Shown: in pieces, positions 62,618-63,005 of the stretch
Layout: the number at the start of each line of letters is the position of its first letter
How positions within the stretch are numbered: position 1 is the stretch's first letter
Assembly: GCF_013167455.1 (NCBI RefSeq)
Contig: NZ_CP038328.1
DNA: 64,000 nucleotides
Strand: one strand, 5' to 3'
From: Escherichia coli O157:H7
Lineage (GTDB): Bacteria; Pseudomonadota; Gammaproteobacteria; Enterobacterales; Enterobacteriaceae
Program-made: the position numbers and the translations under genes
The notes under the pieces: model-generated
What the model saw: only the letters and a program-made list of their open reading frames with translations
Told to the model about the DNA's origin: nothing
Database searches by the model: none

Positions 62618-63005
62618 AACTACTTTTCACCTTTTTTGTGCGTCAAATCGTCGACGCGACGTGAACACGCGAAACTCACCTGCATAATGATGAGCAATTT
62701 CAGCGGTTTTTAACAGGCCGATTCTGCCCTTAATTCTGATGGGCGTGTTAGAAAAAAATGTGGTACAACAACTCAGGCAACACGCAAACGATTTACTCGT
62801 CGTATTTCAAGTTGCATATGCTGCGGCTACGTTCGTTCACCCCAGTTACTTACTGTTGTAAGCTCCTGGAGTTCACTCGCTTGCCGCCTTCCTGCAACTC
62901 GAAATCCATAGAGTAAATAAACATCACCTTTCTGTGCGCTATTGCAGCCGCCTGAAAGAACAGTGTATCGACCTACATCACAGACCGCAGGAAAGGGTCA
63001 ATATA

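Follow-up and report, generated by a model that had tools for sequence, protein, structure and literature searches.

An ERIC repeat in the long ydiK–ydiJ spacer of Escherichia coli, located in the ydiJ leader next to a predicted PurR operator

The divergent genes ydiK and ydiJ of Escherichia coli O157:H7 are separated by a long stretch of DNA that seems to be empty, and the question that this locus raises is what the extra length contains. The window analysed here is a stretch of 64,000 nucleotides of contig NZ_CP038328.1, and the spacer lies close to its right end. An initial annotation, made by reading the sequence, described a divergent spacer of 388 bp with no plausible open reading frame, longer than needed for two divergent promoters and containing inverted repeats such as gttgca...tgcaac. 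It suggested that a structured 5' UTR or an unannotated small RNA could be encoded there, and pointed to transcript ends and to conservation of RNA structure as the means of checking it. The features that frame the question are given below.

62618–63005, no strand: ydiK–ydiJ divergent spacer (the long allele), 388 bp, with the same 388 bp in K-12 MG1655
61505–62617, minus strand: ydiK, the divergent partner of ydiJ
63006, plus strand: ATG of ydiJ, annotated as D-2-hydroxyglutarate dehydrogenase
62739–62861 and 62758–62916: mechanical ORFs of 40 and 52 amino acids
62618–62791, no strand: ydiK-proximal conserved block with both promoters, the ydiK leader and the larger part of the PurR site, which aligns across Escherichia, Citrobacter and Salmonella
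62979–63005, plus strand: ydiJ ribosome-binding block (CACAGACCGCAGGAAAGGGTCAATATA), the same in long and short alleles and near-identical in Citrobacter and Salmonella

The interval between the two genes is exactly 388 bp, as had been described, and it is indeed longer than needed, given that about 75 other enterobacterial species mostly have 196–213 bp, free of the repeat identified below, between ydiK and ydiJ. The judgement on coding capacity is also essentially right. The two mechanical ORFs traverse the repeat, and they are implausible because they begin 5' of the mapped transcription start and because the repeat is absent from 22% of the E. coli genomes. The annotation of K-12 MG1655 marks no feature within the 388 bp.

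The inverted repeat is the key to the content of the spacer. The hexamers gttgca (62811–62816) and tgcaac (62893–62898) are indeed present, and they form the innermost 6 nt of two inverted arms of 26 nt each (62791–62816 and 62893–62918) that are 81% complementary. The predicted minimum free energy of the 141-nt stretch around the arms is −42.7 kcal/mol on the plus strand (z = −5.3) and −59.3 kcal/mol on the minus strand (z = −8.2), and on either strand none of 200 shuffled sequences folded as well. The palindrome represents a copy of ERIC, also called IRU or RU-1, a MITE-like repeat of enterobacteria that is already well known.

62792–62917, plus strand: ERIC/IRU/RU-1 repeat of 126 nt, in the orientation of the published consensus, identified by end-to-end alignment, profile HMM and hairpin

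Aligned end to end, the copy shows 104/130 identities with the 127-nt E. coli consensus of Wilson and Sharp and 107/127 with Salmonella SeRU-1, both as quoted in Table 1a of Delihas 2007 (PMC2759123), which places the overall identity in the range of 80–84%; shuffled sequences give 75 ± 3 identical positions and the reverse complement 81–85. A profile HMM recognizes the copy with 124 bits (E = 3.5e-38). The ERIC2 PCR primer matches positions 62834–62855 with 3 mismatches, and the ERIC1R primer has no match in the copy at up to 3 mismatches because of a 1-nt deletion in its primer site. Moreover, 13 ERIC copies from six genera share a common consensus hairpin of 30 pairs, with compensatory double changes in 11 of them.

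The family is widely dispersed. In 5,425 E. coli genomes it occupies 53,103 places, with a median of 11 for each genome, and further copies come from Enterobacter, Buttiauxella and Yersinia and from a plasmid that carries a yersiniabactin island. It was reportedly described in 1990–91 by Sharples and Lloyd (1990) and by Hulton et al. (1991), and later by Wilson and Sharp (2006). Besides its length of 126 nt, compared to 127 nt for the consensus, the spacer copy shares with the family the imperfect-palindrome hairpin, the dispersion of copies, the presence or absence among strains and the transcribed intergenic site, since it is intergenic and yet lies within a transcribed leader according to the published K-12 starts. 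It differs in its termini, which are TTTAC...GTAAA and not TATAC...GTATA; the two changes compensate each other, so that the stem is preserved. Several registers are compatible with the junction to the reconstructed empty site (ACGATTAA...), and a TA target duplication is not cleanly readable owing to the TT...AA ends in place of the canonical TA...TA. The copy also differs in being located in the 5' leader of ydiJ instead of between co-transcribed genes. Reviews describe ERIC repeats as elements with terminal inverted repeats and TA ends that are co-transcribed with neighbouring genes, and they cite work in Yersinia showing that co-transcribed copies can alter mRNA stability via RNase E, depending on their orientation. 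The Yersinia model concerns the destabilised mRNA of the gene upstream of the ERIC, and for this reason it is not directly transferable to a 5' leader.

How did this copy come to be in the spacer? Of 5,426 complete E. coli genomes, 4,255 have the 388-bp allele, K-12 included, and a 213-bp allele free of ERIC is present in about 1,170 (22%), among them LF82, MP1 and an O2:K1:H5 APEC strain, three strains that we take to belong to phylogroup B2. Both alleles are identical up to 62793 and from 62979, with 185 bp between these points in the long allele versus 10 bp in the short one. The 185 bp hold the ERIC copy and, to its right, a further piece of a different nature.

62918–62978, no strand: variable segment of about 60 bp, single-copy and restricted to the long allele, present in exactly the 4,255 long-allele genomes

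This right-hand piece was considered as a part or relic of the ERIC and rejected, as it is single-copy and gives no match to the profile HMM. The beginning of the piece aligns, through a 17-nt stretch that 4 of 1,000 shuffles equalled, with the additional segment in the spacers of Salmonella arizonae/diarizonae. When positions 62794–62919 are excised, the 262 bp that are left show 211 identities in an alignment along their length with the 263-bp Salmonella arizonae spacer, which leads us to regard the long allele as a Salmonella-like spacer plus an ERIC. A simple deletion from the long allele does not account for the short one, since there are 3 substitutions within 8 bp at the junction and since the short allele aligns with Citrobacter spacers. 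As for the other members of the genus, E. albertii, E. whittamii and Escherichia sp. E1V33 share the 388-bp form with E. coli, and Escherichia sp. MOD1-EC7003 has the short form, which aligns with the Citrobacter spacers of 213 bp. Within the long form, the spacers of K-12 (locus L004:4187–4574) and O157 are identical at 380 of 388 positions. All 8 substitutions fall within 62818–62961, in the inserted 185 bp formed by the ERIC and the 60-bp segment, with no differences between the two strains in the 174-bp ydiK-proximal block and none in the 27-bp ydiJ-proximal block. Such a distribution would fit a relaxed constraint on the insert.

The 5' ends of K-12 were taken from the terminator-exonuclease (TEX)-enriched 5' RACE sequencing of exponential-phase cells reported by Kim et al. 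2012 (PMC3415461), a single dataset, by placing the published 51-mers on the window. The 51-mer of the main ydiJ start was placed with 0 mismatches, and the placement is calibrated by the rprA row, which ends at 61319, the 5' end of the Rfam match to RprA. For ydiJ the K-12 table gives two starts, whose leaders measure 229 nt (49 reads) and 80 nt (25 reads).

62777, plus strand: main ydiJ transcription start, 229-nt leader (Kim et al. 2012, 49 reads)
62761–62769, plus strand: extended −10 element (TGgTACAAC) of the main ydiJ promoter, at −16 to −8 of 62777, in a conserved block
62926, plus strand: second ydiJ 5' end, 80-nt leader (25 reads), with a weak −10-like TAAATA at 62914–62919
62679, minus strand: proximal ydiK 5' end, 62-nt leader (Kim et al. 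2012, 2 reads), weakly supported
62847 and 63134, minus strand: low-count 5' ends on the ydiK strand (Kim et al. 2012), with 3 reads inside the ERIC and 4 reads inside ydiJ, respectively

From its position and its conservation we infer that TGgTACAAC is the −10 element of the main ydiJ promoter; it belongs to a block, AAAAAAATGTGATA(C/A)AAC (also given as AAAAAAATGTGATAcAAC), that is kept in about 75 species. A simple −35/−10 scan detected no promoter in the spacer, as is expected for a promoter of the extended −10 type lacking a −35 element. With the main start at 62777, the ERIC occupies +16 to +141 of the 229-nt ydiJ leader. The second 5' end is located 9 nt beyond the ERIC, with TAAATA at −12 to −7 straddling the edge of the element, and it may derive from a weak promoter or from processing at the base of the hairpin that leaves a TEX-resistant end. 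The possibility that ERIC repeats are general carriers of an outward promoter at their right edge is not supported, because no start is found at the equivalent edge of the other K-12 copies among the rows listed from Kim et al. 2012. The two low-count minus-strand ends at 62847 and 63134 could be antisense or spurious starts. Other sources were also consulted: nothing appears near the locus among the entries listed from Cappable-seq (Ettwiller 2016), and no RNA 3' end falls in the spacer among those listed from Term-seq (Adams et al. 2021). In addition, no terminator-like site was found in the spacer.

The left edge of the ERIC overlaps another element of interest, which emerged when the window was scored with a matrix derived from the 28 PurR sites in Cho et al. 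2011 (PMC3159470).

62782–62797, minus strand: PurR operator predicted by the matrix (AGTAAATCGTTTGCGT), at +6 to +21 of the ydiJ mRNA, directly upstream of the ERIC, with its outer 6 nt being the first bases of the ERIC

This site scores 18.2 bits and ranks first among 127,970 window positions, the leave-one-out median of the true sites being 18.8 bits. The runner-up match, 49405–49420 (13.9 bits), lies inside the ydiS coding sequence and is probably due to chance. The predicted operator spans 16 bp, has CG at its centre and contains one nearly perfect half-site; in the long allele the weak half-site is formed by the terminal bases of the ERIC. Its inner part, ATCGTTTGCGT, is kept across genera. 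Cho et al. 2011 list in their Table 1 (PMC3159470) a PurR ChIP-chip region 'ydiJ/ydiK' at 1,766,545–1,767,225 (681 bp), to which no motif was assigned. The enrichment of this region is log2 1.08 with adenine and none without adenine, compared to about 2.08 at the pur genes (PMC3159470). The spacer corresponds to 1,766,710–1,767,097 in those coordinates, and the resolution of the ChIP data is that of a region and not of a site. We think that the predicted operator at 62782–62797 would explain this motif-less peak of K-12.

Comparison with known PurR operators gives further likenesses. Operators downstream of the promoter, with the same 16-bp ACGNAAACGTTTGCNT box, are represented by purB and purR, which are described as bound within the transcribed region; the glyA operator (AGGTAATCGTTTGCGT) is matched by the ydiJ site at 14 of 16 positions; and the adenine-dependent occupancy in vivo is shared by the ydiJ/ydiK region. 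The differences are that the ydiJ region carries no assigned motif in the ChIP-chip paper and that PurR repression of ydiJ is only putative. The same study did not single out ydiJ among the differentially expressed genes (PMC3159470).

In sequences free of ERIC, the score is 12.1 bits for the short allele of E. coli, 12.9 bits for Citrobacter and 14.7 bits for Salmonella, versus 18.2 bits for the long allele. However, the direction is the opposite in Enterobacter, in which 19.7 bits are obtained without ERIC versus 11.9 and 10.4 bits in two genomes that carry it (L049 and L043, respectively), and a further ERIC-bearing locus, L052, scores 11.8 bits. This reversal means that the ERIC has no consistent effect on the PurR-matrix score, and the notion of the repeat as a consistent strengthener of the PurR box was discarded.

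These Enterobacter loci belong to a wider pattern. On the ydiJ side, the spacer has a fixed order across genera, namely the promoter block, ACGCAAACGAT(T/A), a hypervariable stretch of 0 to about 190 bp, the block CACAAC...CAGGnAGGGTC with the Shine–Dalgarno (SD) sequence, and the ATG. ERIC copies are found in this spacer in at least four other lineages, three of them at the operator edge and one about 20 nt upstream, and other lineages carry DNA of a different kind.

Enterobacter sp. JUb54 (L043): full-length ERIC at the operator edge, in the same orientation as in E. coli
Enterobacter genomosp. O (L049): full-length ERIC at the operator edge, in the opposite orientation
L052: full-length ERIC at the operator edge, plus a second ERIC in the ydiK leader
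Citrobacter amalonaticus S646 (L022), spacer positions 154–357: split ERIC with an internal insertion of about 85 bp, between the −10 element and the PurR box
Salmonella arizonae/diarizonae (L014/L021), Kluyvera (L028/L032/L034/L041/L048), Citrobacter (L010/L024/L025) and Raoultella (L030): unrelated inserts

The split ERIC of C. amalonaticus displaces the PurR operator by about 200 bp from the promoter. The record that holds L052 is named 'Chryseobacterium sp. 18061' (NODE_3), and its YdiK and YdiJ have 83% and 89% identity, respectively, to those of E. coli, and the synteny is enterobacterial; it would seem that the assembly bears the wrong label or is contaminated by an enterobacterium. In other genera, the equivalent of position 62797 or thereabouts carries unrelated inserts of about 50, 60, 87 and 170 bp, and these ydiJ-leader inserts gave no significant match to the ERIC profile. 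A hot spot of hypervariable DNA thus separates the PurR box from the ribosome-binding block. The simplest reading of the recurrent arrival of ERIC at the operator edge is a filter by selection, this being the only place in a compact control region that tolerates insertions.

Taking all this together, we think it very probable that the long spacer consists of an ancestral Salmonella-like spacer of about 262 bp plus an ERIC located in the ydiJ leader, most likely as a tolerated passenger, and that the spacer is unusually long because this copy was acquired. The identity of the ERIC, its polymorphism, the hairpin, the architecture of the spacer and the PurR score were computed here, and the transcription starts and the PurR occupancy are published K-12 data. 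The element would have inserted 15 nt downstream of the ydiJ start, at the outer edge of the PurR operator, and would be co-transcribed as a long hairpin spanning +16 to +141 of the ydiJ mRNA. At that insertion point, the extra DNA would break no promoter, operator or ribosome-binding site. We infer that the effect of the ERIC on ydiJ expression is little or none.

The two RNA-based proposals of the initial annotation have to be weighed against this explanation. An independent, unannotated small RNA could be argued for on the basis of the strong predicted structure in the spacer, of the low-count minus-strand 5' end inside the ERIC (3 reads), and of two Rfam small RNA models, V_AS5 (RF02818) and Ysr49 (RF02766), which align full length to the palindrome. 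However, both fall far short of their gathering thresholds (38.7 bits against 96 for V_AS5 and 26.6 bits against 95 for Ysr49), so that the spacer element is not a member of either family; we think that both models were probably built on ERIC-like repeats of Vibrio and Yersinia. A small RNA would also be expected to have a 3' end, and the spacer offers neither a terminator-like site nor an end among those listed from Term-seq. What is more, the sequence is one copy of a dispersed repeat that is missing in 22% of E. coli (the roughly 1,170 short-allele genomes) and in most of the related genera. The small RNA that this neighbourhood does have lies beyond ydiK as seen from the flagged spacer, to which it is unrelated.

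61212–61319, minus strand: RprA small RNA (RF00034), between ydiK and ydiL, full-length match of 118.5 bits

The 5' end of RprA is a published transcription start with 3,012 reads (Kim et al. 2012, PMC3415461). On these grounds, the proposal of a small RNA was not upheld, and we regard it as extremely improbable. The proposal of a structured 5' UTR fares better in one respect, as a hairpin does occupy +16 to +141 of a 229-nt leader that is long and strongly structured, but the structure is that of a dispersed ERIC and not that of a dedicated regulatory RNA. A cis-regulatory role for ydiJ as a riboswitch, attenuator or thermosensor might rely on the right arm of the ERIC, since positions 62881–62895 are 80% complementary to the SD region of ydiJ (62987–63001). 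However, in the predicted fold of the 229-nt leader the ERIC is a self-contained hairpin, in which the right arm is paired within the element and not with the SD sequence. All the structure of the leader belongs to this hairpin, the remainder being no more structured than shuffled sequence (z = +0.7). Moreover, the species and strains free of ERIC have only about 40–55 nt between the same promoter and the SD sequence, and there is no match to any cis-regulatory family of Rfam. A dedicated cis-regulatory RNA is thus very improbable in our opinion.

Regarding the ERIC as a passenger also requires considering whether it has been put to use. The gain of 6 bits in the PurR score and the adjoining second 5' end make the neutrality of the passenger less than certain. 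The ERIC might have been co-opted, with its terminus completing a stronger PurR operator and its right edge giving a PurR-independent promoter at 62926, so that strains with long and short alleles would regulate ydiJ differently. The score of 18.2 bits with the ERIC terminus, versus 12.1, 12.9 and 14.7 bits without it in the E. coli short allele, Citrobacter and Salmonella, is in line with this, as are the 62926 end, with its 25 reads after TEX enrichment and with TAAATA straddling the ERIC edge, and the retention of the long allele in E. coli, E. albertii and E. whittamii. Against it, the Enterobacter scores run the other way, the −10-like TAAATA does not end in the conserved T and is accompanied by a poor −35, and the other K-12 copies show no edge start among those listed. 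In the published work on PurR, the ChIP enrichment in K-12 is weak (log2 1.08, compared to about 2.08 at the pur genes) and no change in ydiJ expression was reported by Cho et al. (PMC3159470). We think that co-option is unlikely. A more far-reaching proposal is that the ERIC rewired the control of ydiJ, by converting a one-and-a-half site of 12 bits into an operator of 18 bits, with the start at 62926 escaping PurR and with recurrent insertion reflecting a target preference, for example for DNA bent by PurR. If this were true, the arrivals at the operator edge in at least three other lineages would speak of target preference and not of mere survival at a permissive site. We consider such rewiring quite unlikely.

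With the tolerated passenger as the preferred reading, the ERIC copy is an element of an already-known kind, present in K-12 itself, and not a new small RNA. The additions made here are modest, namely an operator for the unexplained PurR ChIP peak and the recurrence of ERIC insertions beside that operator. Genome annotations, that of K-12 in RefSeq included, leave ERIC repeats unmarked, and as a consequence structured spacers that look 'empty' keep being flagged as candidates for small RNAs or riboswitches. Regarding ydiJ itself, it becomes a candidate gene of the PurR regulon, alongside genes of serine, glycine and one-carbon metabolism such as glyA. D-2-hydroxyglutarate is a by-product of SerA, which makes a link between ydiJ and PurR plausible. 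Moreover, the natural polymorphism between 388 bp and 213 bp offers a ready-made test of the effect of a MITE in a 5' leader.

Two minor observations deserve to be added. The E. coli plasmid pH222-1 (L003, about positions 1456–1582) carries between ybtA and ybtP a partial ERIC, which comprises the right two-thirds of the element with 89.7% identity over 67 nt. The divergent genes ybtA and ybtP are here part of a yersiniabactin island on the plasmid, and their shared control region is another case of a compact divergent spacer with an ERIC. The other observation concerns the ydiK side of the spacer, where a second, much smaller structure is found.

62640–62657, minus strand: small hairpin, rich in GC (GCGUC-N8-GACGC), that immediately precedes the SD sequence in the ydiK leader

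The hairpin is kept in many genera with altered stems (GCGCC/GGCGC and CGCCAGC/GCUGGCG). Across 26 genera, 78% of the cells are paired, compared to 14–50% in slid controls. In 7 sequences one pair changes from C-G to U-A, and 7 of 500 shuffles reach as many double changes as were observed. This covariation argues, with moderate strength only, that the ydiK-leader hairpin may be conserved as a structure.
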